Shown here in pieces: positions 12,965-29,443 of a stretch of DNA of 64,000 nt (position 1 is the first letter of the stretch; each line of letters opens with the position of its first letter). Both the position numbers and the translations under genes were made by a program. A model generated the notes under the pieces. That model was given only the letters and a program-made list of their open reading frames with translations, made no database searches and had not been told where the DNA came from. Source of the stretch: Myxococcales bacterium (GTDB lineage: Bacteria > Desulfobacterota > Binatia > HRBIN30). The stretch lies in the NCBI GenBank assembly GCA_037445065.1, contig JBBILD010000008.1, positions 123,131 to 187,130 of the forward strand, read 5' to 3'.

Positions 12965-13187
12965 GCGGTGATTCGCCCGCCTTGACAGAATGCTGGGACC
13001 GAACAATCGCCAGGCTGTCCTGCCTAGTTACGACTGTGGCAGGCTCGAGGCGCCGAACACTGGCGCGTCGAGTGTTCGCGATTGGGCGGCAAGCGGTCCG
13101 GCGAAGGGCAAAGAGCGAGAGTTCCGGTTGCCGCTGGGGCCGGCTTTGCGTTAGGAACTCTGTGCACGCAAAACCGAACCTAGCGCG

Positions 13188-14762: not shown

Positions 14763-14851
14763 CGCGCATGGCCGCCGCCGCACAGGCGCCCGTCATCCGG
14801 GTGGGTTGCGCCGGCCACCTCTGCGGCGAGCAACGAGAGGAGAGGGAAAGG

Positions 14852-16411
14852 ATGCGCCTGCCACGTGGAAGCGGGGTGCTGCTGCACCCGACAAGCTTGC
14901 CGGGTCCGTTTGGAATCGGTGATCTCGGGCCGGAGGCCCGCGCGTTTGTGGACGGGCTGGCGAGGGCCGGCCAGCAGTGGTGGCAAGTCCTTCCGCTCGG
15001 CCCCACTGGCTACGGCGACTCGCCCTATCAGTGCTTCTCGGCTTTTGCTGGCAATCCGCTGCTCATTGCCCCAGAAGAACTCATCGAGGAAGGCTGGCTC
15101 GAGCGTTCTGATCTGGAGCCGCTTCCTCCGTTCGTGGGGGGGCGTGTGGACTTCGAACGGTTGACGCCTTGGAAGCTTGCCTACTTACGGCGCGCCGCCC
15201 GCGGCTTCCTGCAGCGCGGTGGCGGAAACGCAGCTTCGGAGTTCGAGCGCTTTCGCCAGGAGCACGCGTTTTGGCTCGAGGACTTTGCCTTGTTCATGGC
15301 GCTGAAAGAAGCTCATGGAGGCGCAGTGTGGAGCGAATGGGAGCGGGATGTGGTGTGCCGGAAGGAACGGGCATTGGCGCGATGGCGGGGCGAGCTGGCC
15401 GCAGTGGTGGAGGAGTACAAGACCTTGCAGTTCTTCTTTTTCCGCCAGTGGCAGCGTTTGCGTGACTACGCTGCACATCGGGGTGTGCAACTGATTGGGG
15501 ATGTGCCGATTTTCGTGGCGTACGACAGCGCGGATGTGTGGTGCGCTCCCGAACTGTTCTTCCTGGATAAACAGAGGCATCCAACGGCAGTGGCTGGCGT
15601 TCCCCCGGATTATTTCAGTGCCACGGGGCAACTGTGGGGCAACCCGCTGTACCGATGGGAGCGGATGGCCGAAGATGGGTACCGGTGGTGGATCGCTCGG
15701 GTCCGCCACACCTTGGCGCTGGTTGATGTGGTGCGCATTGACCACTTTATCGGCTTTGTTCGTTACTGGGAAATCCCCGCCGGTGCTCCCACGGCTCAAA
15801 CGGGGCGTTACGTTCCGGGGCCAGGGGCGGATTTCTTACAGGCATTGCAACGGGCGTTGGGTGGTTTGCCGCTGATTGCCGAGGATCTTGGCGCGGTCAC
15901 ACCGGAGGTGGAAGCGCTGCGCGATGCGTTCGCTCTGCCGGGAATGAAGGTGCTGCAGTTCGCCTTTGCGAGCGACGCCCACGATCGTTTCCTCCCTCAT
16001 AACTTCACGCAGAATTTCGTGGTGTACACGGGCACTCACGACAACGACACCACGGTTGGCTGGTTCCAGAGCGCAAGCCCGCGAGAAAAACAGTTTGCCC
16101 TCCGATACTTGGGCCGAAGCGGCAAAGAGATCGCCTGGGAGCTGATTCGCTTGGGGATGTCATCGGTAGCGGACACCTTTGTGGTGCCAGCGCAAGACTT
16201 GCTCTCTTTGGCAAGTGAGGCGCGCATGAACTTTCCCGGTCGGCCCGAGGGCAACTGGGGGTGGCGTCTGCTCCCGGGGCAACTGGGCACGGCAGTTTGG
16301 GACCGGCTGGCCGATCTCACAGATGTGTATGGCCGAGCTCAGCCGGGCCCGAAGGCCCGGAAGGCAGGCTTGCCAGAGAACGGTTGCCCTCCTCCTGTGC
16401 TGCAAGCATAG
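14852..16411 (+). CDS. malQ: 4-alpha-glucanotransferase (GH77, amylomaltase)
   Basis: GVLLHPTSLPG, DSPYQ, GVPPDYFSATGQLWGNPLY, RIDHF, AEDLG, YTGTHDNDT; purine-rich RBS before ATG 14852. Confidence 0.96.
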   Translation: MRLPRGSGVLLHPTSLPGPFGIGDLGPEARAFVDGLARAGQQWWQVLPLGPTGYGDSPYQCFSAFAGNPLLIAPEELIEEGWLERSDLEPLPPFVGGRVDFERLTPWKLAYLRRAARGFLQRGGGNAASEFERFRQEHAFWLEDFALFMALKEAHGGAVWSEWERDVVCRKERALARWRGELAAVVEEYKTLQFFFFRQWQRLRDYAAHRGVQLIGDVPIFVAYDSADVWCAPELFFLDKQRHPTAVAGVPPDYFSATGQLWGNPLYRWERMAEDGYRWWIARVRHTLALVDVVRIDHFIGFVRYWEIPAGAPTAQTGRYVPGPGADFLQALQRALGGLPLIAEDLGAVTPEVEALRDAFALPGMKVLQFAFASDAHDRFLPHNFTQNFVVYTGTHDNDTTVGWFQSASPREKQFALRYLGRSGKEIAWELIRLGMSSVADTFVVPAQDLLSLASEARMNFPGRPEGNWGWRLLPGQLGTAVWDRLADLTDVYGRAQPGPKARKAGLPENGCPPPVLQA

Positions 16412-16418
16412 TCTGGCC

Positions 16419-17225
16419 ATGACCGAAGCTGGCGCAGCGGAAAAGGACACCGCCTCGCTTCTGGCTGCGGCGCAGGCGGGCGACCGTTCGGCCCTCGAAC
16501 GGTTGCTGGCACGCTACCAAGGACACATTTTGCGCTTCGGGCTCAAAATGTGCCGCCACCCGGAAGATGCCCGCGACGTGGTGCAAGAAACGCTGGTGGC
16601 GGCGGCCCGCTCCATTGAGCAGTTCCGCGGCGAAGCCTCGCTCTCCACGTGGCTCTATCGAATTGCGCGCAGCTTCTGTGCCAAAAAGCGTCGCCGGCGC
16701 GAGCTGGGATCGCCAACGGATCGCAGCGAAGAACTCGAGCAGGCCACCGACGCCGTGGCCGAGAGTCCTGAGGAGCAGGTCGGCACGCGCCAACTCGTGG
16801 AAGCCCTCTACGCTGCCCTCGACCAGCTCGACCCAAAATACCGAGAGGTGTTTTTGCTGCGCGATGTCGAGGGACTGAGCGCCGCCCAGACGGCGAGCGT
16901 GCTCGGCTTGCAAGTCGCGACCGTGAAAACCCGCCTGCACCGTGCGCGACTGCAAGTTCGGGCTGCCCTTGCCCCTGTGCTGGGCCGATCCGAACGCCAG
17001 CACGGCTGCCCGGAGATCGCGCGCGTGTTTTCGCGCCACCTTGAGGGTGACTTGTCTCCTCAACTGTGCGCGAAAATGGAGCGGCACCTTCGCCAGTGCA
17101 AGAGCTGCCGCAACGAATGTGAATCTCTCCGTTTCCTCCTTGCGGCTTGCCGCGAACTGCCCGGCACCGAGGTTCCAGAAGACCTGGACCGCGCGGTGCG
17201 CACCGCGATTCGAGAGGTGGCCTGA
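16419..17225 (+). CDS. ECF sigma-70 factor with fused C-terminal zinc-finger (zf-HC2/ZAS) domain
   Basis: Region 2 (DARDVVQET, FRGEASLSTWLYRIA), region 4 (TVKTRLHRAR), then C...HLRQCKSC (HxxxCxxC). Confidence 0.88.
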   Translation: MTEAGAAEKDTASLLAAAQAGDRSALERLLARYQGHILRFGLKMCRHPEDARDVVQETLVAAARSIEQFRGEASLSTWLYRIARSFCAKKRRRRELGSPTDRSEELEQATDAVAESPEEQVGTRQLVEALYAALDQLDPKYREVFLLRDVEGLSAAQTASVLGLQVATVKTRLHRARLQVRAALAPVLGRSERQHGCPEIARVFSRHLEGDLSPQLCAKMERHLRQCKSCRNECESLRFLLAACRELPGTEVPEDLDRAVRTAIREVA

Positions 17226-17340
17226 GGGGCCGGGCGGGTGGTGCGGCGCGCATCCTTGGCTGGCGCTGGGGCTTGGCGCGATAGGCGCGTGCGGGAAGCA
17301 CGCCGCGGCTCGATGGACCGAGCCGGGCAAACTCGCTAGC

Positions 17341-18090
17341 GTGGCCCCTGTGCGTTTGGGCGGTATCACCTTCGACTTTGGCGGCACGCTAGATGCCGAC
17401 GGGGAGCACTGGTGCGACCGCTTTGCTCGCCTGTACGGGGAAGTCGGCTGTAGGGTTGATCCCGCCCAGCTTCGCGCCGCGTTCGATGAAGCAACCCGCG
17501 CTGGCTACGCCGCCTCGGGGTTGCGGCATGCAAGCCTCTCCGAGCTAGTAGACTTCCACTTGCGCGCGCAGTGGAAGGCCTTGGGCTGGAAGTGGGGTGA
17601 TTCCGCCCAAGCCATTGTTGTCCTCTTCCTGCAAGAGGCCCAGGCGTATCTTCAGCGTAACCGTGCCCTGTTGGAGCGCTTGCGGGGTCGCGTGCGGCTC
17701 GGGGTGATTTCGAATTTCTATGGAAACTTGCCACGCGTGCTCGAGGAGGCAGGAATGGCGTGCCTGTTCGATAGCGTGCTCGACTCGACGATCGAGGGTT
17801 TTCGCAAGCCGGCTCCAGAAATCTTTGCTTTGGCTGCTGCTCGCTTGCAGGTAGCGCCCCGAGAACTCCTGCACATTGGCGACTCTCTCGAGCAGGATGT
17901 TTTCGCCGCCAAGCGCGCCGGGTTTCAAGCCGCCTGGCTGTGCGGCAACCAAGACAACACGGGTTGCCAGCGGCGCGAAGCAGACTGCGTGTTGCGCTCG
18001 CTCGAAGAGCTGATCCCCCTGGTGGAGCGTGCCGCCGTGCTTGACTCCCCGCACGGCAGCGCGGCCGTCCCCGTGCTTGGCCGGAGATGA
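17341..18090 (+). CDS. HAD-superfamily hydrolase (phosphatase)
   Basis: FDFGGTLD motif I, ISNFYGN motif II, KPAPEIF, HIGDSLEQDV motif IV. GTG start inferred. Confidence 0.88.
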   Translation: MAPVRLGGITFDFGGTLDADGEHWCDRFARLYGEVGCRVDPAQLRAAFDEATRAGYAASGLRHASLSELVDFHLRAQWKALGWKWGDSAQAIVVLFLQEAQAYLQRNRALLERLRGRVRLGVISNFYGNLPRVLEEAGMACLFDSVLDSTIEGFRKPAPEIFALAAARLQVAPRELLHIGDSLEQDVFAAKRAGFQAAWLCGNQDNTGCQRREADCVLRSLEELIPLVERAAVLDSPHGSAAVPVLGRR

Positions 18091-18794
18091 TTCAGCAGGC
18101 CGGGATCCTTGCTGCTGGGTTAGGAACGCGCTTGGTCCAGGACCGGGCGGCCGGGAAGCCAATGGTAGAGGTGCGGGGAAAGCCTTTGATCCATTACGTT
18201 GTTGCCGGGCTCGTCCAGGCTGGGGTGCGGCGCGTAGCCATGGTGCTCAATTCTCGCGGGCGAGCCGTCGAGGCGTACTGCCGGACAGCTTTTCCGCGTG
18301 TGGACTGGCGCATCGCCTATCATGACACTGCTCATTCCCTCGAAACGTTTCGTGCCCTACAGCCGCTCTTAGAGCGCCAGCGGTTCGTCTTGAGCATGGC
18401 GGACACTGTGCTGGCTCCGCGGGCACTGATCGCCTTCGTGAGCGAGGCGAGCGTGCGTTCTGAAACGATCACGCTGGCGGTGACGGACTGGGTTGACGAC
18501 GAAAAACCCTTGTGGGTTCGTTTCGATGCAAAAGGACGCGTAACAGCGCTTGGGCCTGAGGCGGCTGGCAGCGGTTGGGTGACGGCCGGGGTCTACGCCG
18601 TGGCCTCGGAGGTGTACTCCTGGCTCGACCGTTCTCAGGTAAGAAGCATGCATGGACTGAGTGAATTCTTTGCGTACTCGGTCAGAGTAGGGGCTGCTGT
18701 TCGCGCCATTCCGGTCGGCCAGGCGGTGGATGTGGACCGACCGGGAGACCTGGTGCAAGCAGAGCGCCTGCTTGAGCGACTGAAGCTGCCATGA
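18087..18794 (+). CDS. Sugar/cyclitol-phosphate nucleotidyltransferase (NTP_transferase)
   Basis: ILAAGLGTRL, KPMVEVRGKPLI, VDDEKPLWV, VDVDRPGDL; start overlaps HAD stop. Confidence 0.85.
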   Translation: MIQQAGILAAGLGTRLVQDRAAGKPMVEVRGKPLIHYVVAGLVQAGVRRVAMVLNSRGRAVEAYCRTAFPRVDWRIAYHDTAHSLETFRALQPLLERQRFVLSMADTVLAPRALIAFVSEASVRSETITLAVTDWVDDEKPLWVRFDAKGRVTALGPEAAGSGWVTAGVYAVASEVYSWLDRSQVRSMHGLSEFFAYSVRVGAAVRAIPVGQAVDVDRPGDLVQAERLLERLKLP

Positions 18795-19603
18795 TTCCTG
18801 ACTTTGTGTGCGTCTTGCGCGAGCCAGAGTTTTCTCCCGGACGCGTCGAAGATGATGCAGGGATCCTGCTTGCCGTTGCTAGTGTCCTGCGCAACCGGGG
18901 TTACACGGTGGAGCTCGTACAGGCACACGCACAGCGCTGGCCAAGGATCGGTACGGAAACGCTAGTGCTGTCTATGGCACAGGGCACGCCGGCTCTGGAG
19001 CGCCTCCGTGTTTGGGAAGTTGAGGGGGTACGGGTCATCAACTCGGTGAGCGCCGTGCAGAATTGCAGGCGAGCAGTTACCGACCGACTGCTGCGCCAGG
19101 GAGGCATTCCTCACCCTCCCACCCGCCTCCTTCCCTTGGACGCGCAAGTGTTGCCGACGGAGTGGTTTGCCTCGGGCGTATGGATCAAACGGGGCGACTT
19201 CCACGCCATGGCCGAGGGTGACGTGTCGTTGGTGCACTCCCCTGTGGAAGCAGACGCTGCGCTCGGGCGGCTGCGGGGGCGTGGCGTGGAGTACGCTGTG
19301 GTGCAGCAAAACGTGACCGGCCGAGTCGTGAAGTTCTATGTTGTGGCGGAGCAGTTCCTTTGCGTCACAGATGGGGGGGTGCCGGTAGCGGTACAACGCA
19401 AGATTGGAACGCTCGCGCGCCGTGCGGCAGCGTTGCTCGGGCTAGAGGTGTTCGGCGGTGACTGCGTTGTGACGCAGGCCGGCGAGTGTCTCTTGATTGA
19501 CTTGAACGACTGGCCTAGCTACGCCCGTTGCCGTCTTTCCGCAGCCGCGGCGATTGCCGCTTACGCGCAAGCAGAAAAGGGGAAGGGCTCGTCCCAAGAA
19601 TAG
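18791..19603 (+). CDS. ATP-grasp-fold protein (ITPK1-like motifs)
   Basis: RVINS...NC, WIKRGDFHA, VVQQNVTGRVVKFYVV, GLEVFGGD, LIDLNDWPSY; start overlaps upstream stop. Confidence 0.7.
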   Translation: MIPDFVCVLREPEFSPGRVEDDAGILLAVASVLRNRGYTVELVQAHAQRWPRIGTETLVLSMAQGTPALERLRVWEVEGVRVINSVSAVQNCRRAVTDRLLRQGGIPHPPTRLLPLDAQVLPTEWFASGVWIKRGDFHAMAEGDVSLVHSPVEADAALGRLRGRGVEYAVVQQNVTGRVVKFYVVAEQFLCVTDGGVPVAVQRKIGTLARRAAALLGLEVFGGDCVVTQAGECLLIDLNDWPSYARCRLSAAAAIAAYAQAEKGKGSSQE

Positions 19604-19614
19604 AGCCGAAGATC

Positions 19615-20949
19615 ATGACGCCTTTCGATTTCGTTCCAGGGCCGGGCTCGCGGCGAGTGGTTGAAGAGGAGCGGCTCTATCTCGCTCCGGGTGTGCAGCG
19701 CATTGCCTCGCTCTCTGGCTTGGTGTTCCATCGCGGCCGAGGGTGTACGCTCGAGGACGTGGATGGCAACCGGTACCTGGACTTTTTTGCCGGTGTCGGG
19801 GTGGCAAGCTTGGGCCACAGTCACCCGCGCTTCGTTAGCGCCGTTCAGCGGCAGGTGGAGCGGTTGGTTGTCGGCAGCTTCACTTCGCAAGCCCGCGCTC
19901 GCCTCTTGCGCCTGTTGGCGGAACTAGGCCCGGGCAGGCTGCAGCGGTCCCAACTGTACAGTGGTGGTGCCGAGGCCGTAGAAGCAGCCATTCGGCTGGC
20001 GAAGTCGTACACGAAGAAATTCGAAGTGATTGGATTCTGGGGTGGTTTTCACGGGAAGACCGGTGGAGTCATCGGCCTGATTGGCGATCCCTGGAAACAG
20101 CATTGGGGACCGTTGCCTCCCGGAACGCACTTGCTGCCGTACGCGGATTGTTACCGCTGCCCGTTCGACCTGCAGTACCCGAGCTGCGGTATGTTTTGCT
20201 TGGAGTTCGCACGCCGGGCCATCAAACGGAGCACTGCCGGAGCCGTTGCGGCCATTGTCGTCGAGCCGATGCAAGGGACGGCGGGGAACGTGATTCCTCC
20301 GCCTGAGTTTCTGCCTGGCGTGGCGGAAATCGCGCGTGAGCACGATGCGGTGCTGATTTGCGACGAGATCATTACCGGCTTTGGGCGTACGGGAACAATG
20401 TTCGCGTGCGAGCACACCGGGGTCGAGCCAGACGTAATGACGATCGGGAAGGGCTTCGGGAACGGCTTCCCGATCAGCGGCCTCATTGCCCGCGAGGAGG
20501 TTACGCAAGCAGAACCGTTCTCCAGACCGAGCGCCTCTTCTTCCAGCTACGGAGGGAATCCCCTGGCAGCCACCGCGGCCCTCGCGACGGTGGAAACCAT
20601 CGTCGAAGAAAACTTGGTCACGCACGCCGCCCGGGTCGGCGAGCGGTTACTGAATGAGCTGCGAGCCCTGCAGGAAAAGTACCCCTTTGTCGGCGACGTG
20701 CGTGGCGCTGGGCTTCTTATCGGTCTGGACCTGGTGCGCGATCGGCGCAGTAAGGAGCCTTTGCCCGCCGAAGTAACCGAGTGGGTCTTCCTGCAGGCGC
20801 TGCAGCGGGGTTTGCTGTTTATGGGGTACTTCTCCCGCGTTCGCATCAATCCTCCGTTGGTTCTAACCGAGAGTGAGGCGCGCGACGGGGCGGCAATCTT
20901 GGACGAGGTGTTTGCTGAGTTGGAGCGGAGTGGGCGGCATCGCGCATGA
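19615..20949 (+). CDS. Class III PLP-dependent aminotransferase
   Basis: DVDGNRYLDF, SGGAEAVE, FHGKT, EPMQG, DEIITGFGRTG, IGKGFGNG, SYGGNP. Confidence 0.92.
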   Translation: MTPFDFVPGPGSRRVVEEERLYLAPGVQRIASLSGLVFHRGRGCTLEDVDGNRYLDFFAGVGVASLGHSHPRFVSAVQRQVERLVVGSFTSQARARLLRLLAELGPGRLQRSQLYSGGAEAVEAAIRLAKSYTKKFEVIGFWGGFHGKTGGVIGLIGDPWKQHWGPLPPGTHLLPYADCYRCPFDLQYPSCGMFCLEFARRAIKRSTAGAVAAIVVEPMQGTAGNVIPPPEFLPGVAEIAREHDAVLICDEIITGFGRTGTMFACEHTGVEPDVMTIGKGFGNGFPISGLIAREEVTQAEPFSRPSASSSSYGGNPLAATAALATVETIVEENLVTHAARVGERLLNELRALQEKYPFVGDVRGAGLLIGLDLVRDRRSKEPLPAEVTEWVFLQALQRGLLFMGYFSRVRINPPLVLTESEARDGAAILDEVFAELERSGRHRA

Positions 20950-21962
20950 CACGACGGCGGCGTGGGGCACTGCTTGGCTTCGGAGAAATGGCGCGCCTGG
21001 GGCACTTGCCTGCCTGGAGGGAGCGGCCGGAGTTCGAACTGGTCGCGGTGGTTGACCCCAACCCGGAGCGACTGGCATTGGCCCGGCAGGCCCTACCACA
21101 CGCTCGGCCCTGCTCGACCTTGGAGGAATTGTGGGAGCACGGCCCCCTCGACTTCGTAGACATTGCTACGCCACCCACTTTCCACACCGCTATGGCCCGA
21201 GCTGCCCTCGATCGCGGGATCGCTGTTTTGTGCGAAAAGCCCTTGACGACGAATTTGACCGAATTCCTCGTGCTCGCGGCCATCAGCCGGAGCGGCGGTA
21301 TTGCCCTCCACACGGTTCACAATTGGCGCCATTCGCCTGCGCAGCGGGCCGTTTCCGCGTTGTTGCAAAGCGGGCGTATCGGACGAGTGCGTCGCGCCGA
21401 AATCCGCGTCGAACGAGAAGGGTGTGCGGTGGGAAGCGCAGGTGACTGGCGCCTGCTGGGCGAGGTCGCGGGAGGGGGAATCCTCACCGATCACGGCTGG
21501 CATGCGTTCTATTTGGTCGCGGGGTGGTTGGGCGGCACCCCGCGATTCGTTCGCGCCTCGGCGGAGCAGCGGCGCTACCTCCATGCCGAGGTGGAAGATA
21601 CGTCGCACTGCGTGATCGAGTTCCCGAGCGGAACGGCGGAGCTGCACCTCACTTGGGCTGCGTCACGACGCCACACAGCGTGGCGAATCGAAGGGGAGCG
21701 CGGGGAAATTCGAGTCGAGCAAGGGGTTTTGGTGCTCGAGGATGAGCGGGGGCGGATGCGGCGGCCAGTTGCGGGGCTGTCTGCTGGTTCCCATCACCCG
21801 GATTGGTTCGGCGCCGTCATCGAGGAGTTTCGTTCTGTCCTGGAGGACCCTACGCAGTCCAATTTAGAGCAGGCCGGCTGGTGCGTGGCTCTCCTGAGCC
21901 AGGCGTACCGCTCGATTCGTCAAGGGGGAGCCAGGGTGCCTGTGTCCCTGTCGCTCCCGTGA
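20946..21962 (+). CDS. Gfo/Idh/MocA-family NAD(P)-dependent oxidoreductase
   Basis: GFGEMA, IATPPTFH, CEKPL, GGGILTDHGWH; start overlaps aminotransferase stop. Confidence 0.9.
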   Translation: MTRRRRGALLGFGEMARLGHLPAWRERPEFELVAVVDPNPERLALARQALPHARPCSTLEELWEHGPLDFVDIATPPTFHTAMARAALDRGIAVLCEKPLTTNLTEFLVLAAISRSGGIALHTVHNWRHSPAQRAVSALLQSGRIGRVRRAEIRVEREGCAVGSAGDWRLLGEVAGGGILTDHGWHAFYLVAGWLGGTPRFVRASAEQRRYLHAEVEDTSHCVIEFPSGTAELHLTWAASRRHTAWRIEGERGEIRVEQGVLVLEDERGRMRRPVAGLSAGSHHPDWFGAVIEEFRSVLEDPTQSNLEQAGWCVALLSQAYRSIRQGGARVPVSLSLP

Positions 21963-21975
21963 GCGGGAACGAGGA

Positions 21976-23169
21976 GTGGACATGGATCGCGCGGTGATTC
22001 TACCGCCCACGGAAGCTAGCTTTTGGCGCGTTGCGGGGCTCACGGTATTGGAACGGGTAATACGGACTGCCCAGCGCGCTGGTTTCCAGACGGTGGCGGT
22101 GTGGTTGCCGGAGGAGCGAGATCCCGCCCCGTGCGGGAGTGCCGAGCGCAATGCTCGACCTCTCTTGTCCGACGTCCGTCTCCAGCCAAAACCCCGATTG
22201 GATGACCATGTGTGGGTGCTTTTGCCGAGCGATGCAGTGTGGCCGGCTGCTACCTTACACGCTTTGCGTGGGTTGCCCCTGAACGGCGCCGTACAGGAGA
22301 TCGAGCTTGCGCCGGGCGTGAGCGTGTGGGTCGGGCCCGGAAAGCAATTGACTCGCATCCTCGAGGGTTGCGAGCCTGCTCGCGCCGCAAAGCTTTTAAG
22401 TACGCTAGCCAGCGCAAAACTCTCTCTGCCCGACGGGGTAGGCGTGCGAGTCGCACAGCGCCGAGCCGTGGATCACGCCGAGCGCGTGCTGTGCGAACAC
22501 ATTCGCGGCCAGACGGCGGGGTCGGATGGTTTGCTGGCACGCTGGTTCGACCGCCGACTGTCGCTTTGGCTGAGCCGACAAATCGTTCGCTACACCTCGC
22601 TCCGCCCGAATCATATCACGCTGCTGGGCACCGCCGTGGGCTTGTTTGGGGCTGCTTTGCTGCTGCGTGGCGAGTACGCGAGCAATGTGCTGGGAACAGC
22701 GTTGTTCTGGCTGGCGACGGTGCTCGATGGATGCGACGGAGAGGTGGCTCGGCTCAAACTGAGCGAGTCGAAATTTGGGCAGGTGCTGGACGTGGCTACC
22801 GACAACCTCGTCCACGCGGCTGTGTTTCTCGGCCTGGGGTTGGGTTACGCCCGCGCGCAGCCGGAGGCCCCGTACGGGTGGCTCACGGTTTTGTTGCTCG
22901 GCGGCTTCGTCTGCGCTGGAGGTGCGAGCTACTTTGCGCTGGTGCGGCACCCCGAACTTTTTGTGGGGGACCAGCGCCGTGCCTCGCGAACAGCCCGGAT
23001 GCGAGCGGCTTTGCTGCAGGGACTCAAGGCGCTCATGACCCGGGATTTTGCGTATCTGCTTTTGCTTCTCGCTTTCCTCGACCGCTTGCATTGGTTCTTG
23101 TGGGGTGCAGCTTTCGGCACGTACGGTTTTTGTCTCCTGCTTTTGCTCCTCTACCGCTGGCGCCCTTGA
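21976..23169 (+). CDS. CDP-alcohol phosphotransferase (DIPPS-like) with degenerate N-terminal NTP-transferase-like region
   Basis: DGLLARWFDRRLS...PNHIT, LDGCDGEVAR...GQVLDVATD CDP-alcohol motif; N-terminal VAGLTVLERVIRTAQRAG. Confidence 0.87.
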   Translation: MDMDRAVILPPTEASFWRVAGLTVLERVIRTAQRAGFQTVAVWLPEERDPAPCGSAERNARPLLSDVRLQPKPRLDDHVWVLLPSDAVWPAATLHALRGLPLNGAVQEIELAPGVSVWVGPGKQLTRILEGCEPARAAKLLSTLASAKLSLPDGVGVRVAQRRAVDHAERVLCEHIRGQTAGSDGLLARWFDRRLSLWLSRQIVRYTSLRPNHITLLGTAVGLFGAALLLRGEYASNVLGTALFWLATVLDGCDGEVARLKLSESKFGQVLDVATDNLVHAAVFLGLGLGYARAQPEAPYGWLTVLLLGGFVCAGGASYFALVRHPELFVGDQRRASRTARMRAALLQGLKALMTRDFAYLLLLLAFLDRLHWFLWGAAFGTYGFCLLLLLLYRWRP

Positions 23170-23183
23170 GAGGTGGGCGAGCC

Positions 23184-24188
23184 ATGGGAGTACTGCGCTC
23201 GCGGAAATTCGAGGCGGCCTTTTTTCTCCTGGGCATCGCGTTGTTTGCCTGGCTGGCGCAGCGCTTTGGCTGGTCAACGCTCGTGGATGCGGTGCAACTC
23301 GCCGGCTGGGGTTTGCTGGCCGTTGTCGCGCAGGAGATCCTCGCGCATCTCTTGAACACGCTCGGCTGGTATTTTGCGTTTGCCCGCACCAGCCGCCGCC
23401 CTCCGTTCTCCTCGATGCTCCTCGCCCGCATCGCGGGGGATGCCGCCAATTACCTTACCCCGACTGCGACCCTGGGTGGTGAGTTTGTCCGCTTGCAACT
23501 GCTGCGGGATGCTACCCATGGCCGGGAGCTGGTGGCTTCGCTGGCGGTAGCGAAGTTGGCGCAAAGCGCGGGACAAGTGGTGTTTATTTCTGCCGGTGCC
23601 CTCGTGCTCCTGCCGGCCCTTGCACTCGATGCGAAGTGGTGGTGGACGATAGCTGCAACCATCGCGCTCATGGCCGTAGCGTTGGCCGTGCTTTTGTGGT
23701 GGCAGCGGCGAGGTATGTTCACTTCGCTGGGAGGTTGGCTGGGACGCGCCAACCCTTTAGCGCGCGAGCGATGGGACCGCCGCTTGGCTGTGCTCGACGC
23801 CGAAGTTAGCCGCGTGTACCAGGAGGCCGGGCTGCGCATGCCGCTTTCGGTGCTCGCCTTTGCTCTCGGTTGGGCGGCGGGCGTGATCGAGATGTACCTG
23901 ATCCTCTGGTGTTTAGGATTGCCGGCAAGCTGGAGCCTCGCGCTGGCGATCGAGGTGCTCTCGGTGACCGTTGACGGTTTGCTCTTTTTTATTCCGGCCA
24001 AAATGGGTGCGCAGGAGGGGGGTAAGGCGTTGATCTTTGCCCTCTTGGGGCTGGACCCGAGCCGCGGCTTCTCTGCTGGCGTGCTGCGCCGAATTCGTGA
24101 ACTGGTTTGGTCGGGCGTTGGCCTTGGCCTGTGGTGGCTCGTCCGCTGGCGGAACGGAGTGCAGGTCTCCGCGGCCAGTTTGGGGTAA
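23184..24188 (+). CDS. Lysylphosphatidylglycerol-synthase TM / flippase-like membrane protein (HpnL-like)
   Basis: Multi-TM; RIAGDAANYLTPTATLGGE, FFIPAKMGAQEGG, RRIRELVW. Confidence 0.82.
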   Translation: MGVLRSRKFEAAFFLLGIALFAWLAQRFGWSTLVDAVQLAGWGLLAVVAQEILAHLLNTLGWYFAFARTSRRPPFSSMLLARIAGDAANYLTPTATLGGEFVRLQLLRDATHGRELVASLAVAKLAQSAGQVVFISAGALVLLPALALDAKWWWTIAATIALMAVALAVLLWWQRRGMFTSLGGWLGRANPLARERWDRRLAVLDAEVSRVYQEAGLRMPLSVLAFALGWAAGVIEMYLILWCLGLPASWSLALAIEVLSVTVDGLLFFIPAKMGAQEGGKALIFALLGLDPSRGFSAGVLRRIRELVWSGVGLGLWWLVRWRNGVQVSAASLG

Positions 24189-24197
24189 GGAGGGGGC

Positions 24198-25166
24198 TTG
24201 CTGCCAGCGAGTGTTGCAGCAGGGCGGGAACCCGCAGCGCGTCTCGGGCCGCAGCAGGCTCTTATCGTCTCTGCAGATGATTTTGGCCTCTCCCACGGCG
24301 TCAACGAGGCAGTCCGGCAGGCGCACTGCCACGGTGTGCTCACCAATGCGAGCCTGATGGTCAATGGCTCAGCGTTCGAGGAAGCGGTAGACATCGCGCA
24401 CTCGCTGCCGAGCATGGGCGTGGGCTTGCACTTGGTGCTCTTGCAGGGGCGCGCAACCCTTACCGAACTCGACCTCCCAGGACTGATTTCTCGCGAGGGT
24501 TTCTTCCGGCAAGACCCGGTCCGTACCGGCTTGCTCTATTTTTTCGCAAAGCGCTTGCGCGACCAACTCGAAAGAGAAATCCGCGCTCAGCTCGAAAAGT
24601 TCCTGGCCAGCGGGCTCGCGTTGTCGCACGTTGACGGGCATTTGAACATCCACGTGCACCCAACGGTGCTGAGCATCCTTGTCAGCGTTGCGGCGGAGTA
24701 CGGCATTCGCGCCCTGCGCCTGCCTAGGGAGCCTTTGCGGTTATCGCTGCGCGCTAACCACTCGCAACTGCTGCGCAAAGTGGTCGAGTCACTCACCTTT
24801 CGCGCGTTGTGCCGCCATGCGGCCAGGCGGCTCGACGAGCATCGGATCGCTTATCCCGATCAGCTTTTTGGGTTGCATCACTCGGGGCACATGACCGAAT
24901 CGTACCTGCGGGTGATGACCGAGAGCCTGCCGCCAGGAGTGACCGAAATCTACACGCATGCTTCGCGGGTGGACGACGAGGCAGCCCGTTGGCGTCCGCG
25001 GGACTACGAGTGTGAAGGCGAGCTGCAAGCTTTGCTCAGTGCGCAACTAAAACAGCAGATCCAAGACCGTGGCATCGCGCTGATCACGTACCGGGATCTG
25101 CCGCGACTTCGGGGGGCGGAGCAGAACGAGACTCGGTCGCCGTCGCAAGCAACGCTGCTCCGCTAA
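24198..25166 (+). CDS. hpnK: Hopanoid biosynthesis-associated deacetylase (YdjC/ChbG family)
   Basis: SADDFGLS, ASLMVNG, GLHLVL, HVDGHLNIHVHP, GVTEIYTH; close to hpnJ. Confidence 0.85.
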   Translation: MLPASVAAGREPAARLGPQQALIVSADDFGLSHGVNEAVRQAHCHGVLTNASLMVNGSAFEEAVDIAHSLPSMGVGLHLVLLQGRATLTELDLPGLISREGFFRQDPVRTGLLYFFAKRLRDQLEREIRAQLEKFLASGLALSHVDGHLNIHVHPTVLSILVSVAAEYGIRALRLPREPLRLSLRANHSQLLRKVVESLTFRALCRHAARRLDEHRIAYPDQLFGLHHSGHMTESYLRVMTESLPPGVTEIYTHASRVDDEAARWRPRDYECEGELQALLSAQLKQQIQDRGIALITYRDLPRLRGAEQNETRSPSQATLLR

Positions 25167-25956
25167 TGGCCAAAACGAAGGCCAGCAGGCGATAACTTGC
25201 CTCTGGCTGCTGTGGGGGAAGACGCTCGCCGAGCACGACCAAACCAGCGACGATGGGCAACATGTCGGAAAGAACTGTGAGGATCGGCACCACCACCACA
25301 CCGCGCCCGTGCTGCAGTGCTGACTGCATCAGGGAAAAGCCGGCGACATTGGTAACGATAGTCAGCCAAAGAGCTGAGCTACGCAGCACCTCGGCCAAGG
25401 ACGGCGCCACCGCCAGGAGTTTCGCAAAAAGCCCTGAGAGACCGAGGATCAGACCCGCCGCGATCGAGTACCCTACGGGCCGCCCCGGCCGCGAATCGAG
25501 CCCGAATGCCAGCGTGGCAAGCAACACTTGAGTCGCGACGAACCACCACAAACCTCGCGGTGCGGTCGGGAGCACCGGCTCGTCGTCCAAGGAAAGCCCG
25601 AACAAGACCAAGGCCACGGTGATCGAGAGGGCTCCGAGCCACTCCCGTTTCCCCGCCGACTCGCCGAGCAGCGAAACTGCCAAGAGCAGGAACAGGACCA
25701 GCCCCCCGCTCAAAGCAGTGTGGACGAGGGACAGAGGAGCGAAGCGGAGCACGGCAAGATAGAGTCCGTACCCAAGCGCTTGCAGGGCGACTCCCCAGAG
25801 CCAGGCAGGGTTGCGCAAGAAAGCCGCCCACGATCGGAACCGTAGGCCACCCGCCAGTTCCGGCATCTTTGGTGCCTCGCGCTTCATCAGGTAGAGGCCG
25901 CAACTCAGAAAAGCGCTGGCTACGGCGGCAAGAAACAGGGCGAGTTGCGGGCTCAT
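25084..25956 (-). CDS. DMT-superfamily membrane protein
   Basis: About 9 hydrophobic helices; NPAWLWG, APLSLV, GESAGKREWLG, FSLMQSALQHG; 3' end overlaps hpnK by 83 bp. Confidence 0.75.
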   Translation of the reverse strand: MSPQLALFLAAVASAFLSCGLYLMKREAPKMPELAGGLRFRSWAAFLRNPAWLWGVALQALGYGLYLAVLRFAPLSLVHTALSGGLVLFLLLAVSLLGESAGKREWLGALSITVALVLFGLSLDDEPVLPTAPRGLWWFVATQVLLATLAFGLDSRPGRPVGYSIAAGLILGLSGLFAKLLAVAPSLAEVLRSSALWLTIVTNVAGFSLMQSALQHGRGVVVVPILTVLSDMLPIVAGLVVLGERLPPQQPEASYRLLAFVLAISGAALLATATESRSAPPPEVAADPGT

Positions 25957-26058
25957 GCGTGCAGTCGGGCCGAGCTGTTGCAAAACTCCTGCAGAGCTGC
26001 CCCCGGGGCCAATGTTCCGTTCGGGGAGGGGTGAGCAACCAGGTGAGGAGTCAAGCGG

Positions 26059-27492
26059 TCAGGCAGATGCTGCCGGCTCCCGCCTCTGGGCAAAGAAGGA
26101 GAAAAACTCGCGCGCCTCGCGCAAGCGGCGAACCATCACTTTGCGGTCTTTGAGCATGTCCTTCATAATCCGCAGAATCGGCCGCGGGCGCAGGTAAAAC
26201 GCCTTGTAAAAATGCTCGAGCGCCTCGTGCATTTCCTGCGACGAGAGTTCTGGGTAGTTCAGAACCGCTTGCTGGATACCGTGGTCTTCTACGAGTCCGT
26301 CTTCTCGATCCGGCGGTAGCCAGCCTTTTTCCTTCGCCTGACGGTACAACTCCGTTCCCGGATACGGGGCAGCCAGGGACACCTGCAAGCTGTACGGGTC
26401 GAGTTCCTTGGCGAACTCGAGGGTGCGCGCGATGGTTTCTGGCGTCTCGCCCGGCAGGCCAATGATAAACGTGCCGTGCACCAAGATGCCGAGCTTATGG
26501 CAATCGCGCATGAATTCGCGCGCGCGGTCCACCCGCGTGCCTTTGCGGATATTGTTCAAGATGTGTTGGTTCCCGGTTTCGAAGCCAACCAAGAGCAGCC
26601 GCAGCCCATTGTCCTTGAGCACCTTGAGCGTTTCGTACGGGACGTTTGCTTTCGCGTTGCAGGACCATGTGATCCCTAGTTTCCCGAGGCCGCGCGCGAT
26701 TGCCTCGGCGCGCGGGCGATCATCGGTAAAGGTGTCGTCGTCGAAAAAGAACTCCCGCACCTGAGGAAAAATCTCTTTGGCGTGCGCCATCTCAGCGATC
26801 ACGTGCTCGGCGCTGCGGGTGCGGTAGACGTGCCCGGCGATCGTTTGTGGCCACAAGCAAAAGCTGCATTTGCTCCGGCAGCCGCGCCCGGTGTACAAGG
26901 ACACGTACGGGTGCTGCAAATAACCAATGTAGTAGTTCTCGATGACGAGGTGCTTTTTGTACACGTCCACCACGAACGGGAACGCATCTAGGTCGTGGAT
27001 GGGCGGCCGAGTCGGGGTGCGCCGGATCTCCGTTCCCTCGCGGTACGCCAATCCGGCCACGTTCTGGTAGGGCTGGCCTTCGGCGATGTCGCGGATCACG
27101 TAGTCGAATTCGCCGAGCGTGACAAAGTCCACCGCAGGAGCCACCTGCAGTGTCTGCTCAGGAAGCACCATGGTGTGGGCGCCGACAAAGCCGATCACGG
27201 CGTGCGGGTACGCCTCTTTGAGGGCGGCCGCGACTTTGGCGTCGGACCGCAACGATGGCGTAGAGGTGTGGATGACGATCAAATCGTGGCCAGCCGCGCG
27301 CTGAATGACTTCTTCCAAGCCGAGTTCGTGCGGCGGTGCATCAATCAACGTACTGTCGGGAAGCAGCGATGCAGCCTGGGCAAGCCAAGTCGGGTACCAG
27401 AAGGAACGGACTTCGCGCCGCGCCTGGTAGCGCGACCCAGCCCCGCCGTCGAAATGGTCGAACGACGGTGGGTTCAAGAACAACGTTTTCAT
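26059..27492 (-). CDS. hpnJ: Hopanoid biosynthesis-associated radical SAM protein
   Basis: MKTLFLNPPSFDHFDGGAGSRYQARREVRSFWYPTWLAQ N-terminus characteristic of HpnJ; CRSKCSFC radical-SAM motif; FFDDDTFTD. Confidence 0.93.
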   Translation of the reverse strand: MKTLFLNPPSFDHFDGGAGSRYQARREVRSFWYPTWLAQAASLLPDSTLIDAPPHELGLEEVIQRAAGHDLIVIHTSTPSLRSDAKVAAALKEAYPHAVIGFVGAHTMVLPEQTLQVAPAVDFVTLGEFDYVIRDIAEGQPYQNVAGLAYREGTEIRRTPTRPPIHDLDAFPFVVDVYKKHLVIENYYIGYLQHPYVSLYTGRGCRSKCSFCLWPQTIAGHVYRTRSAEHVIAEMAHAKEIFPQVREFFFDDDTFTDDRPRAEAIARGLGKLGITWSCNAKANVPYETLKVLKDNGLRLLLVGFETGNQHILNNIRKGTRVDRAREFMRDCHKLGILVHGTFIIGLPGETPETIARTLEFAKELDPYSLQVSLAAPYPGTELYRQAKEKGWLPPDREDGLVEDHGIQQAVLNYPELSSQEMHEALEHFYKAFYLRPRPILRIMKDMLKDRKVMVRRLREAREFFSFFAQRREPAASA

Positions 27493-27800
27493 CGCCACAG
27501 CATCACCCCGTTTCCAGGCCGCTGCACAGTAACCGAGCCCACCTGCACGATCAAGGCAAAGTGCGCGCAGCTTTGGGGAAGGGTTTCCTTGTCTTTGGCC
27601 CGATGGTGCTTCTCGACAGCCTGGGTGTGCCGCCTGGGAGGAATGGGCGGAAGGGAAAGTCGCAGTGAGCAACGAAGCGATCCGCCCGCTCTGACGGTAG
27701 CCGGATGGAGGCACGAGCGAAAAGAACGGCTGGGGTGGAGGCAACGTTGGCGGAAATCGAGTTCTGGCTAGCCGCGGCGGTGAGGTGCTAACTAGCCGCC

Positions 27801-28610
27801 ATGGCAAAAGCGACGGTTTTGGCGCTTACCGCCGGAGCGGTGATGTGGCTGACGTTCCTTGGCCACTCTGCGCGCGCGCAAAGCAAGTTTGCGGGGCTAG
27901 TTGAAACGCGGCGCGTGGAGGTGGATGCAAACACGTTGGTTCGCGTTCTGGGTGGAGTTGCCGGGGATCCGGTGCAAGTGTTCAGCTTGCCGAGTGAGCG
28001 GATCGTGCGCCTGAAAGAGCAGGGAGATCCCGGGGTGCAAGTCAAGGAAGAAGTCTTCCGTGTGCGAGACGGTGTTGTTCGCGCAGATGTACCCTGGCGG
28101 AACGGGCCTTCGTTTGTCCTGATCCGCGTTGGTCAGGACGTTATGGAATGGGTCCATCCCGGGGAACGCACTGTGATCCAGTGGCGCAAACCGCCCATTT
28201 TGCGCCAGCTCACGCCGAGCCCGACTCCCGCGTTACAACCCTTGCAGCGAACGGTTTCGCTGGGGGGCCTCGAGGCCGAAGGCTACCAGCTCAAGCGAGG
28301 AAGCGAGATCGCCTGGGTGTGGATTGCTCGCTCGCCTGCAGGCCTGGCGGAAATCGCGAAAGCCGTGGCCGCCTTATCGCAGGCAATCAAACCGGAAGCG
28401 GAGCGCGTGGACGATTTTGCAATACGGGCCGCTTCTGCGATCGGATTTCCGGCCCGTGTGCAGGCGTGGACTGCGCGTGGCTACACCTTGTACGAAGTGG
28501 TGCGCGTGGAGCCGAAGGAACAACCCGCGGAGGATTTTGCGGCGCCGCGGGACTTTCGCCGCGTGTCTACGGGCGATCTCCAAGGCGAGAAAGAGAGCCG
28601 ACAGCCGTGA
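27801..28610 (+). CDS. Exported protein, DUF4412-like
   Basis: Signal peptide (ARA-Q), TVSLGGLEAEGYQL, IGFPARV, C-terminal FAAPRDF; resembles 44355-45167. Confidence 0.55.
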   Translation: MAKATVLALTAGAVMWLTFLGHSARAQSKFAGLVETRRVEVDANTLVRVLGGVAGDPVQVFSLPSERIVRLKEQGDPGVQVKEEVFRVRDGVVRADVPWRNGPSFVLIRVGQDVMEWVHPGERTVIQWRKPPILRQLTPSPTPALQPLQRTVSLGGLEAEGYQLKRGSEIAWVWIARSPAGLAEIAKAVAALSQAIKPEAERVDDFAIRAASAIGFPARVQAWTARGYTLYEVVRVEPKEQPAEDFAAPRDFRRVSTGDLQGEKESRQP

Positions 28611-29443
28611 GCGAGGGGCGTGCAGCCTGGGAGATTTTCGCGCCGGATTTATTCCGTGGCCACACCGCACTGGTAACGGGTGGTGGCCGCGGCATTGGTC
28701 GGGCAATCGCCCATGGTTTTGCCAAGTACGGCGCAAACGTCGTGATTGCTGCCCGCAACCCTGAAAACCTCGAGCGGACACGAGCGGAACTGGAAGCGAT
28801 GGGAGTCGGTTGCCTGGCGGTGCCAGCCAACATCCGCGAAGTGCAGCAAGTGGAAGAGTTGGTGCAACGAACGCTCGAGCGCTTCGGTGCGATCGATTAC
28901 TTGGTCAATAACGCTGGAGGGCAGTTCCCGGCGCGGCCACAGGAAATCAGCGACCGTGGTTGGCGGGCGGTTGTAGACCTCAACCTCAACGGTACGTGGA
29001 ACATGTGCAGCCGAGTCGGGCCCCACATGCTGGCGCGGGGGAAGGGCGCGGTGGTGAACATCGTGCACATTTATTCGTTCGAGCGCGGCGCCCCGGCTTT
29101 CGCCCACTCGGGGGCAGCCAGAGCCGGGGTGGTCAACCTCACCCGCTCTTTGGCTTATTACTGGGCCCGGCGCGGAGTGACGATCAACGCCTTGGCCCCA
29201 GGCACAGTTTCGACCCGGGGTCTCCGCGAAGAGGAATTCAGCCGCGCGGAAGTGAGCGATTACGAGGCATTGGCGGTCCGCGACATCCCAGCGCACCGCT
29301 TGGCGGAGCCCGAGGAAATCGCCGCGGCGGTGTTGTTTCTCTGCTCGCCCGCAGCCCGTTACATTAACGGTTCGGTGCTGGTCGTGGACGGGGCCTTGTC
29401 CTTGAGCAATTGGACTCCGCTCTTCGACCCAGAAACGTTTTGA
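28607..29443 (+). CDS. Short-chain dehydrogenase/reductase (trans-2-enoyl-CoA reductase-like)
   Basis: TGGGRGIG, NNAGGQF, HSGAARAG, NALAPG; GTG start overlaps upstream stop. Confidence 0.88.
   Translation: MSEGRAAWEIFAPDLFRGHTALVTGGGRGIGRAIAHGFAKYGANVVIAARNPENLERTRAELEAMGVGCLAVPANIREVQQVEELVQRTLERFGAIDYLVNNAGGQFPARPQEISDRGWRAVVDLNLNGTWNMCSRVGPHMLARGKGAVVNIVHIYSFERGAPAFAHSGAARAGVVNLTRSLAYYWARRGVTINALAPGTVSTRGLREEEFSRAEVSDYEALAVRDIPAHRLAEPEEIAAAVLFLCSPAARYINGSVLVVDGALSLSNWTPLFDPETF

Follow-up and report, generated by a model that had tools for sequence, protein, structure and literature searches.

Results and Discussion

Gene content of the locus

The window analysed here, 64,000 nt from the genome of an uncultured Binatia bacterium of soil or the subsurface (assembly GCA_037445065.1; contig C8, positions 123131-187130; 3.79 Mb in 46 contigs, 62% G+C), carries on its forward strand eight tightly packed genes (17341-25166), whose limits were set by listing the open reading frames (ORFs), scanning them with Pfam and NCBIfam and checking the start codons. 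They encode a HAD-superfamily hydrolase, a soluble nucleotidyltransferase, an ATP-grasp enzyme, a class III aminotransferase, a Gfo/Idh/MocA dehydrogenase, a CDP-alcohol phosphotransferase, an HpnL-like membrane protein and the hopanoid enzyme HpnK (Table 1). Three junctions are 4-nt overlaps (hydrolase/nucleotidyltransferase, nucleotidyltransferase/ATP-grasp and aminotransferase/dehydrogenase), and the remaining gaps measure 9-14 nt. The genes for a DMT-family transporter and HpnJ, on the reverse strand, converge on this group, and the gene for myo-inositol-1-phosphate synthase (MIPS, ino1) lies 17 kb downstream. An earlier reading of the sequence, hereafter the original prediction, had described eight co-oriented, overlapping or closely spaced genes facing hpnJ and the transporter, with ino1 at 42.2-43.6 kb; all of these were found, with coordinates within a few bases, and the region is a real eight-gene operon.

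Coding frames were taken from the Pfam and NCBIfam matches, and the G+C content of third codon positions gave no frame separation at 62% GC. A promoter and terminator scan of positions 16000-28800 returned one promoter-like site for 1.5 expected and 13 terminator-like sites for 13.9 expected, hence no signal. The nine sequencing runs listed as containing this DNA include no RNA run. The protein atlas clusters to which the operon proteins belong were annotated only as 'hypothetical protein'.

Table 1 Features of the window and of a second locus, L114 on contig C2 of the same genome. Bit scores are followed by the model cut-off where one is given.
Feature	Position	Strand	Evidence and remarks
HAD-superfamily hydrolase	17341-18090	+	PF00702, 66.8 bits (cut-off 26.4); first gene of the operon
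NTP_transf_3 soluble nucleotidyltransferase	18087-18794	+	PF12804, 47.9 bits (27); 4-nt overlap with the hydrolase gene
ATP-grasp enzyme, 270 aa	18791-19603	+	fold from AlphaFold model; 4-nt overlap with the nucleotidyltransferase gene
Class III (omega-type) pyridoxal phosphate aminotransferase	19615-20949	+	PF00202, 330.8 bits; 11-nt gap upstream
Gfo/Idh/MocA NAD(P)-dependent sugar/cyclitol dehydrogenase	20946-21962	+	PF01408, 72.1 bits; PF22725, 73.5 bits; 4-nt overlap
CDP-alcohol phosphotransferase, 397 aa	21976-23169	+	PF01066, 49.5 bits (22); 13-nt gap
HpnL-like 'flippase-like' membrane protein (LPG_synthase_TM)	23184-24188	+	PF03706, 86.6 bits; 14-nt gap
HpnK, YdjC-family deacetylase, bacteriohopanetetrol (BHT)-glucosamine/cyclitol-ether route	24198-25166	+	TIGR03473, 331.2 bits (232.6); 9-nt gap; last gene of the operon
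DMT-family transporter	25084-25956	-	NF038012, 44.3 bits (50); downstream of hpnJ
HpnJ, B12-binding radical SAM enzyme, putative ring contraction to BHT cyclitol ether	26059-27492	-	TIGR03471, 745.1 bits (577.6)
MIPS (ino1), myo-inositol-1-phosphate synthase	42241-43557	-	PF07994, 332.7 bits; PF01658, 102.9 bits
LPG_synthase_TM protein, neighbour of hpnI	L114:3501-4499		
PIPS/AIPS-like CDP-alcohol transferase, neighbour of hpnI	L114:4719-5480		
PAP2_3 protein, neighbour of hpnI	L114:11893-12816		

Conservation of the operon in Binatia and in other phyla

A full-length orthologue of the phosphotransferase (E <= 1e-70) was present in 29 of 40 related genomes, and 14 of these 29 loci were fetched. 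The genes for the nucleotidyltransferase, ATP-grasp enzyme, aminotransferase, dehydrogenase, phosphotransferase, HpnL-like protein and HpnK kept the same order and strand in all 14 Binatia loci, and the hydrolase gene was detected in 13 (the exception is L023), a colinearity far beyond chance. A glpD-like gene (35-37% identity) lay divergently beside the hydrolase gene in six of the 14, and MIPS stood next to hpnJ in one (L018, genome G008).

In a wider scan with the phosphotransferase profile, 80 loci were kept at one genome per species and compared with the window proteins by tblastn (E <= 1e-6, coverage at least 0.4; identity at least 50% for MIPS and at least 45% for HpnJ), a locus being counted as a cassette when at least three of the five soluble enzymes were present. 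Eight loci were of the Binatia type with hpnK. Another 25 held the cassette with MIPS directly downstream (Acidobacteriota Thermoanaerobaculia, Elusimicrobia, Nitrospirota, Verrucomicrobiota), and 12 held it with no MIPS in the fetched stretch (Myxococcota, Alphaproteobacteria, Methylomirabilota/Rokubacteria, others). The phosphotransferase/HpnL-like pair alone was found beside hpnJ and/or hpnK in seven loci, the phosphotransferase with MIPS only in six, mostly short contigs, and the phosphotransferase homologue by itself in 22. Without hpnK, the remaining seven genes (six for enzymes, one for the HpnL-like protein) make up a cassette that spans at least eight phyla, and the operon is the Binatia form of this widespread, uncharacterised cassette, which travels with hopanoid biosynthesis. 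That the gene set would be kept together in relatives, on which the original prediction depended, was borne out by the seven colinear genes of the Binatia loci and by the recurrence of the cassette in other phyla.

Several loci place these genes among those of hopanoid synthesis. According to Pfam, the Elusimicrobia locus L093 has hpnJ, a GT21 gene (hpnI type), the phosphotransferase, the HpnL-like gene and hpnK alongside one another, and L040 has the same set; the phosphotransferase/HpnL-like pair lies among hpnI/J/K in Elusimicrobia, Gemmatimonadota and some Binatia, and in all five tested genomes with this layout the ATP-grasp gene was found elsewhere in the genome. In Acidobacteriota, the cassette of L101 stands beside DUF2279, SQS_PSY, PNP_UDP (hpnG type), an epimerase (hpnA type), a radical SAM protein with DUF3463 (hpnH type) and squalene-hopene cyclase (SHC), while L098 encodes on one strand SQS_PSY, DXS and IspH followed by the HpnL-like protein, nucleotidyltransferase, ATP-grasp enzyme, aminotransferase, dehydrogenase, phosphotransferase and MIPS.

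The CDP-alcohol phosphotransferase and the HpnL-like protein

The phosphotransferase is real at its full 397 aa: 15 orthologues could be aligned over their whole length, and none departs from the motif D251x2D254G255x2A258R259x8G268x3D272x3D276. Its conserved N-terminal domain of about 160 aa resembles a degenerate nucleotidyltransferase, with LPPTxxSF where GxGTR would be expected. Compared with the PDB, the profile matched AF2299 (4o6m, 1.1e-26), IPCT/DIPPS (4mnd, 2.3e-20) and PIPS (1e-12), and the enzyme belongs to the AF2299/DIPPS branch, whose known member uses a soluble CDP-alcohol. Features in common with the Archaeoglobus fulgidus IPCT/DIPPS (AF0263, 4mnd) and its paralogue AF2299 are the helix next to the membrane (juxtamembrane helix), a cytosolic N-domain and the DGxxAR...GxxxDxxxD motif, to which the IPCT-like nucleotidyltransferase encoded separately upstream may be added. 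The phosphotransferase differs in that its N-domain lacks GxGTR and in its setting of a bacterial membrane, hopanoid genes and extra tailoring enzymes. The scores fell short of the cut-offs both for IPCT/DIPPS (NF041135, 72.4 bits against 580) and for the phosphatidylinositol-phosphate synthase (PIPS) models (NF045883, 52.2 against 170; NF040950, 52.3 against 180).

With IPCT/DIPPS as the closest characterised relative of the phosphotransferase, the product could be a soluble phosphodiester solute of the di-myo-inositol-phosphate (DIP) or glycero-phospho-inositol type. The separate IPCT-like transferase, the HAD hydrolase and MIPS would fit the logic of the DIP pathway, and the sequencing runs containing the window DNA are labelled as subsurface and hot-spring metagenomes. 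However, the flippase-like membrane protein is a constant member of the cassette, the cassette is embedded in hopanoid loci, and the DIP route needs no extra dehydrogenase, aminotransferase or ATP-grasp enzyme. Most carriers are moreover, by record title, metagenome-assembled genomes (MAGs) from groundwater, soil and peat, not thermophiles. We consider a soluble solute very improbable.

The HpnL-like protein remained below the cut-off of the HpnL model (TIGR03476, 157.5 bits against 195.65) and exceeded that of TIGR00374 (58.1 against 43.2); its own profile matched no other protein of the genome. Like HpnL, it belongs to the LPG_synthase_TM fold family and is associated with hopanoid loci; unlike HpnL, it invariably has a CDP-alcohol phosphotransferase as its partner, and its gene lies 3' of the phosphotransferase gene in all Binatia loci. 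In genome G002 the two proteins are encoded by a single 765-aa ORF (L030:8334-10631, reverse strand). A complex of the two partners was not retained on this ground, since one locus among the 45 that hold both genes is too thin a basis.

A quick maximum likelihood tree of 92 phosphotransferase sequences, midpoint-rooted and with the careful search unfinished, showed two groups, each with an SH-aLRT support of 99. The group of 42 comprises the window, all Binatia, Myxococcota and all seven hpnJ/K-embedded loci; the group of 50 contains all 25 loci with cassette and MIPS. Both paralogues are present in Elusimicrobia.

Nucleotidyltransferase, HAD and ATP-grasp proteins

The soluble nucleotidyltransferase gave weak matches to IPCT/DIPPS, MurU, GalU and HddC models and to the PDB entries 4jd0, 8hhd and 2xme (IPCT), and its signature LAAGxGTRL and one lysine are kept across 56 orthologues. 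This member of the MobA-like/sugar-1-phosphate NTP-transferase family is predicted to make the CDP-alcohol.

In HAD phosphatases motif I reads DxDx(T/V), the aspartate at +2 being the acid/base. Motif I of the operon protein is D12-F-G-G-T-L-D18, at least 95% conserved in 52 orthologues, with glycine at this position. The nucleophile aspartate, a serine, a lysine and the GDS...D motif are retained, and the NCBIfam scan gave only sub-threshold REG-2-like/CTE7 matches. The protein is a member of the HAD superfamily as defined by Pfam and departs from the phosphatase definition at motif I; because glycine replaces the +2 aspartate, its designation as a phosphatase is uncertain.

The 270-aa protein had no Pfam match, and was identified as an ATP-grasp enzyme from its AlphaFold model (pLDDT 95.4). 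The nearest folds were ArgX, RimK and LysX/ArgX (VIA-align Z of 22.0, 21.0 and 20.9), followed by ITPK1 (17.9) and PPIP5K2 (17.8). A profile search of the PDB returned PsnB (4e-7), RimK (1e-4) and ITPK1/4 (1e-4, C-terminal motif only), and the score against the RimK family model TIGR00768 was 26.5 bits, below the cut-off of 143.4. Residues K133, K181, D224, D237 and N239 are invariant, and the family is small: 1.84 billion proteins yielded 599 representatives at E <= 1e-30. It is an uncharacterised family with a fold closest to that of the ArgX/LysX/RimK ligases, and a ligase activity seems slightly more probable than a kinase activity. An ITPK1-like kinase was given up as the favoured reading and kept as an option, the sequence match being limited to the C-terminal Mg-binding motif (E ~1e-4) and the fold ranking below the ligases.

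Among the best 150 relatives of the ATP-grasp protein, 11 were long forms: eight fusions of nucleotidyltransferase and ATP-grasp domains, one of HAD, nucleotidyltransferase and ATP-grasp (P0009), one of ATP-grasp and CDP-alcohol phosphotransferase, and one without Pfam domain. As they are naturally fused, the HAD protein, the nucleotidyltransferase and the ATP-grasp enzyme probably work on one pathway. L101 had suggested that the ATP-grasp gene may be kept where the aminotransferase gene is lost; this idea was discarded, the aminotransferase gene being situated just beyond that locus.

Aminotransferase, dehydrogenase and MIPS

The aminotransferase gene is the most conserved of the cassette, with 68-80% identity within Binatia and 50-62% in other phyla. 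The best PDB match of the protein was 7vno, followed by GabT-type enzymes, and no NCBIfam equivalog cut-off was reached (best score 379.9 against 552). The PDB matches of the dehydrogenase included an aldose-aldose oxidoreductase and, at E 5e-14, the scyllo-inositol dehydrogenase 5ya8. It is a generic sugar or cyclitol oxidoreductase of the Gfo/Idh/MocA superfamily and likewise reached no equivalog cut-off, scoring 58.6 bits against 355 for IolG (TIGR04380, myo-inositol 2-dehydrogenase). Most simply, the two enzymes would oxidise and aminate the ring.

In aminoglycoside pathways inosose is aminated by a DegT/StsC-type aminotransferase. The operon resembles aminocyclitol pathways (aminoglycosides, rhizopine) in the pairing of a dehydrogenase with an aminotransferase near an inositol source, but its aminotransferase is of class III and GabT-like. 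The inositol-inosose-inosamine logic of the original prediction stands as far as the conserved pairing of the two genes is concerned, and its amination step was not borne out by the family of the aminotransferase or by any equivalog model.

MIPS orthologues of 61-74% identity are situated directly behind the phosphotransferase gene in the 25 loci of other phyla. In the order to which the genome belongs, MIPS is present in 39 of 41 genomes, namely in 30/30 with the phosphotransferase orthologue and 9/11 without it. The proposed tie of the operon to ino1 holds on both counts, and MIPS is the presumed source of the cyclitol.

Association with hopanoid biosynthesis

HpnK, which also matched PF04794 (238.4 bits), and HpnJ, in which both the B12-binding (PF02310) and the radical SAM (PF04055) domains were found, exceed their NCBIfam equivalog cut-offs, and the operon copy of hpnK is the sole HpnK match in the genome. 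HpnI, encoded on contig C2, is above its cut-off too, and SHC is encoded with HpnC/D, HpnE, an HpnG-like protein and HpnH on contig C1. There, HpnC and HpnD are fused in one 590-aa protein (L112:13468-15240, reverse strand), and the same locus has, next to shc, mevalonate-pathway genes (HMG-CoA reductase, mevalonate kinase, phosphomevalonate kinase, diphosphomevalonate decarboxylase).

BHT cyclitol ether is made by way of HpnI, HpnK and HpnJ (Schmerk et al. 2015, cited in the available part of PMC12583986), in agreement with the original prediction. All three proteins of this route are present in the genome, but the route has no place for the seven genes upstream of hpnK, and its cyclitol derives from N-acetylglucosamine (GlcNAc), not from inositol.

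SHC (TIGR01507) was above cut-off in 5/5 and in 32/33 further cassette genomes, and in the 33rd its gene is split over two contig ends, so that all 38 carriers reached through loci have it; these carriers include kin that are not independent, and many are MAGs. The accessible text of a recent survey puts SHC in about 10% of species (1645/15541; bioRxiv 10.1101/2025.07.29.667474). With the ATP-grasp gene as marker, an even sample of 151 Elusimicrobia contained 12 marker-positive and nine SHC-positive genomes, the latter all marker-positive, and SHC was found in 0 of 139 marker-negative genomes. In a sample of the same size from Verrucomicrobiota, the marker occurred in the seed genome only, together with SHC, and eight other genomes had SHC without the marker. 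The tie to hopanoid genes that had been proposed is upheld by the 38 carriers, by the loci embedded among hpn genes and by the sole hpnK being in the operon, and the association is strong, if not proven obligatory.

The joint occurrence of the aminotransferase/dehydrogenase pair with hpnJ, hpnK and ino1, which the original prediction had put forward for examination, was found for hpnK (14/14 Binatia loci) and MIPS (all 30 orthologue-bearing genomes of the order), but not throughout for hpnJ. The adjacent DMT transporter and hpnJ genes accompany the operon in 5/14 Binatia loci and are also found in L039 and L041. HpnJ was above cut-off in just 22 of the 38 carriers outside Binatia, with two more copies cut by contig ends, and because of this proportion the cassette does not require the cyclitol-ether route or hpnJ. 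The DMT transporter weakly resembles ArnE, a flippase subunit (E 1e-4), and the 3' end of its gene overlaps that of hpnK by 83 nt.

A proposed pathway and its product

Because of the family of the phosphotransferase, the separate nucleotidyltransferase, the synteny with MIPS and the natural fusions, we infer a head-group pathway of the CDP-alcohol type with inositol phosphate as its starting point. MIPS would provide the inositol phosphate, the ring of which would be oxidised and aminated by the dehydrogenase and the aminotransferase. The HAD, ATP-grasp and nucleotidyltransferase proteins would jointly convert the cyclitol to a CDP-alcohol, with the ATP-grasp enzyme acting either as the kinase of a kinase/phosphatase/nucleotidyltransferase trio, as in the NDP-heptose route, or as a ligase that N-acylates the amine. 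The AF2299/DIPPS-type phosphotransferase would then move the phospho-head group to a membrane alcohol, and the HpnL-like protein would handle or flip the product. In our judgement it is moderately probable that a cyclitol phosphate, probably an aminated one, is activated with CDP and passed to a membrane alcohol, for which a hopanoid is favoured.

The favoured acceptor would be a hopanoid polyol, namely BHT as such or after its conversion by HpnI/K/J to the glucosamine or cyclitol-ether form. It is preferred because of the association with SHC, the embedding among hpn genes, the location of the sole hpnK in the operon and the existence of a separate gene pair for ordinary phosphatidylinositol. 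This pair, on contig C2, consists of a PIPS-like transferase, which scored 120.6 and 150.8 bits with the PIP-synthase models NF045883 and NF040950 (the latter value being that of the AIP-synthase model) and 130.3 bits with the BT_1523 model, and of its own flippase-like partner; by its family it appears to serve ordinary phosphatidylinositol, apart from the operon transferase. We nevertheless regard the hopanoid acceptor itself as a tentative assignment only.

Two directions of transfer may be envisaged. In one, BHT (through its side-chain polyol), BHT-glucosamine or BHT cyclitol ether could receive the head group from the CDP-(amino)cyclitol. As a mirror image, the phosphoribosyl-hopane expected from HpnG could be activated with CTP and transferred to inositol-1-phosphate, in the way in which DIPPS and PIPS treat their donors, and the HAD protein would trim the product. 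The available portion of PMC13459092 states that phosphoribohopane, the theoretical product of HpnG, has never been observed. Either direction would yield the first phosphodiester-linked hopanoid, a 'hopanoid phospholipid', with the HpnL-like protein as flippase or partner, an outcome that we hold to be possible and yet rather doubtful.

Evidence against the proposal and alternative products

Several observations weigh against this proposal. No operon enzyme reached an equivalog cut-off for an inositol-specific function in the NCBIfam scan, the hydrolase is without the acid/base aspartate expected in motif I, and the kinases rank behind the ligases among the fold neighbours of the ATP-grasp protein. 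HpnJ is, as said above, far from general among the carriers. The even sample of 151 Acidobacteriota had five marker-positive and 23 SHC-positive genomes, and only two with both (one being the unpublished genome G409). SHC was not found, even at E 1e-5, in 3/12 Elusimicrobia and 3/5 Acidobacteriota with the marker, and HpnH was not found in the five of these six genomes that were tested. In the Binatia order, SHC was present in 23/30 genomes with the phosphotransferase orthologue and in 3/11 without it; it was not found in G003, G005, G006, G013, G023, G031 and G035. Lastly, the consulted text of PMC12583986 describes five types of bacteriohopanepolyol (BHP) in Alphaproteobacteria, none of them with phosphate or inositol, and reports that the surroundings of the hpn clusters in the cultured members under study revealed no additional candidate genes.

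Kennedy-type transferases normally use diacylglycerol, and the product may instead be an amino-inositol phospholipid on diacylglycerol or ceramide that elaborates the alternative inositol-lipid cluster of Bacteroides vulgatus and Prevotella, occurring with hopanoids through shared membrane work. That unconfirmed cluster comprises, in the parts of Heaver et al. (2022, PMC9246714) that we could consult, an NTP transferase, a CDP-alcohol transferase and a HAD protein near MIPS, with an LPG-synthase homologue nearby, in agreement with the account given in the original prediction. The core set of the operon is identical in kind, with MIPS 17 kb off here and adjacent in the 25 loci of other phyla; the comparison is by gene type, not by sequence homology. 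CDP-inositol formation and subsequent transfer are proposed for both, and for the Bacteroides cluster they are described as experimentally unconfirmed in the same text. The operon differs by its dehydrogenase, class III aminotransferase and ATP-grasp enzyme and by its ties to hopanoids. The 13 carriers in which SHC was undetected and the 14 of 38 from which HpnJ is missing also speak for a phospholipid. On the other side, SHC accompanies every carrier reached through loci, the cassette occurs inside shc-hpnH loci and among hpnI/J/K, and the genome already has the PIPS-like enzyme with its own flippase-like partner. The SHC-negative carriers of known assembly state (the seven Binatia) are fragmented, all being assemblies of 120 or more contigs, while 10/10 positive genomes with <=100 contigs have SHC, and seven of the 13 hold other hopanoid-specific genes. 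A phospholipid of this kind is in our view unlikely, though a serious alternative.

Among the seven Binatia, HpnH is present in G003 and G035 and was not found in G005, G006 and G013. HpnI is above cut-off in G005, G006, G013, G023 and G031, and HpnJ in four of these five (not in G031), all with the hpnK operon and without a detected SHC. Either the core hopanoid locus was systematically lost from fragmented MAGs, or HpnI/J/K have another substrate there. HpnI/K/J might then act, beyond BHT, on the inositol lipid of the cassette, GlcNAc being added to the (amino)inositol, deacetylated and rearranged with a logic like that of GlcN-inositol in glycosylphosphatidylinositol anchors or mycothiol. 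The co-transcription of hpnK with the cassette, as predicted from the operon layout, would agree with this, as would the position of hpnI within 9 kb of PIPS-like, LPG_synthase_TM and PAP2_3 genes in its own genome. Such a role is nonetheless improbable. HpnI, HpnJ and HpnK exceed equivalog cut-offs that were trained on hopanoid loci, and the exceptions are all genomes of 120 or more contigs, with SHC in every cassette-positive genome of the order of <=100 contigs. The available part of the survey (bioRxiv 10.1101/2025.07.29.667474) moreover reports no HpnI or HpnJ domains outside the genomes that have both SHC and HpnH.

The locus of hpnI on contig C2 (L114:3501-12816, hpnI at 9269-10558) deserves a description of its own. 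The three inositol-lipid-type genes near hpnI include one for a protein of the PAP2_3 family, which we take to be that of the AUR1-type inositol-phosphoceramide synthases. The locus is a Bacteroides thetaiotaomicron-like inositol-lipid set interleaved with a hopanoid glycosyltransferase.

Taken back to the proposed transfer of an aminated cyclitol phosphate to a membrane alcohol, these data bear on the original prediction of an amino-inositol-phosphate head group for a phospholipid or a composite hopanoid. The gene set and the ties to MIPS and to hopanoids are in its favour, whereas amination and the choice between hopanoid and diacylglycerol as acceptor found no direct support.

Relation to known systems and significance

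The Kennedy pathway uses a CDP-alcohol phosphotransferase, and NDP-heptose synthesis a trio of kinase, HAD phosphatase and nucleotidyltransferase. As in the Kennedy pathway, an alcohol phosphate would be activated by a nucleotidyltransferase and moved by a CDP-alcohol phosphotransferase, and the HAD/nucleotidyltransferase/ATP-grasp fusions recall the NDP-heptose trio. In contrast to both, the role of kinase would fall to an ATP-grasp enzyme, and the head group would be a cyclitol.

A literature search, with supplements outside its scope, found no description that joins hopanoid genes, inositol or MIPS, a CDP-alcohol transferase, an aminotransferase and an ATP-grasp enzyme, and the original prediction had likewise not recognised the combination as described. 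The cassette is real and conserved and appears to be undescribed, and its layout in Binatia indicates that it is joined transcriptionally to hpnK, beside hpnJ. Its product could be a new class of hopanoids.

Among the lipids of bacterial membranes hopanoids take a major place, and geohopane biomarkers derive from them. The diversity of their head groups has yet to be fully mapped according to the accessible parts of PMC12583986 and bioRxiv 10.1101/2025.07.29.667474; hpnA, hpnB, hpnL and hpnM are listed without assigned function in the former, and HpnL likewise in the latter. The cassette links hopanoid loci to the synthesis of inositol phosphate, to the chemistry of CDP-alcohols and to an HpnL-like protein, and so predicts a lipid class rich in phosphorus and nitrogen, which derivatisation-based BHP analyses would probably miss. 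If a hopanoid phosphodiester is the true product, the HpnL family would gain its first function. If the acceptor is diacylglycerol, the product would still be new: a bacterial phospholipid with an amino-inositol head group whose occurrence follows that of hopanoid producers. It would bear on the cooperation of hopanoids and polar lipids in membranes.

Neighbouring genes

Immediately 5' of the operon, a single 300-aa frame (16323-17225) contains an ECF sigma-70 domain and a zf-HC2 anti-sigma zinc finger. The ECF sigma gene was rejected as a conserved regulator of the cassette, being missing beside it in the other loci except for a 31% match in L077. Further upstream (6802-16411) are glucose-6-phosphate-related genes: tal, pgi, gnd, zwf, a glpD-like FAD oxidoreductase gene and malQ. 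Three adjacent forward-strand genes 3 kb from hpnJ (30388-34203) encode a KAS-III-like protein with a ChsH2-type OB-fold and zinc ribbon, an SCP-x/Ltp-type thiolase and a cytochrome P450, a trio reminiscent of steroid side-chain cleavage modules.

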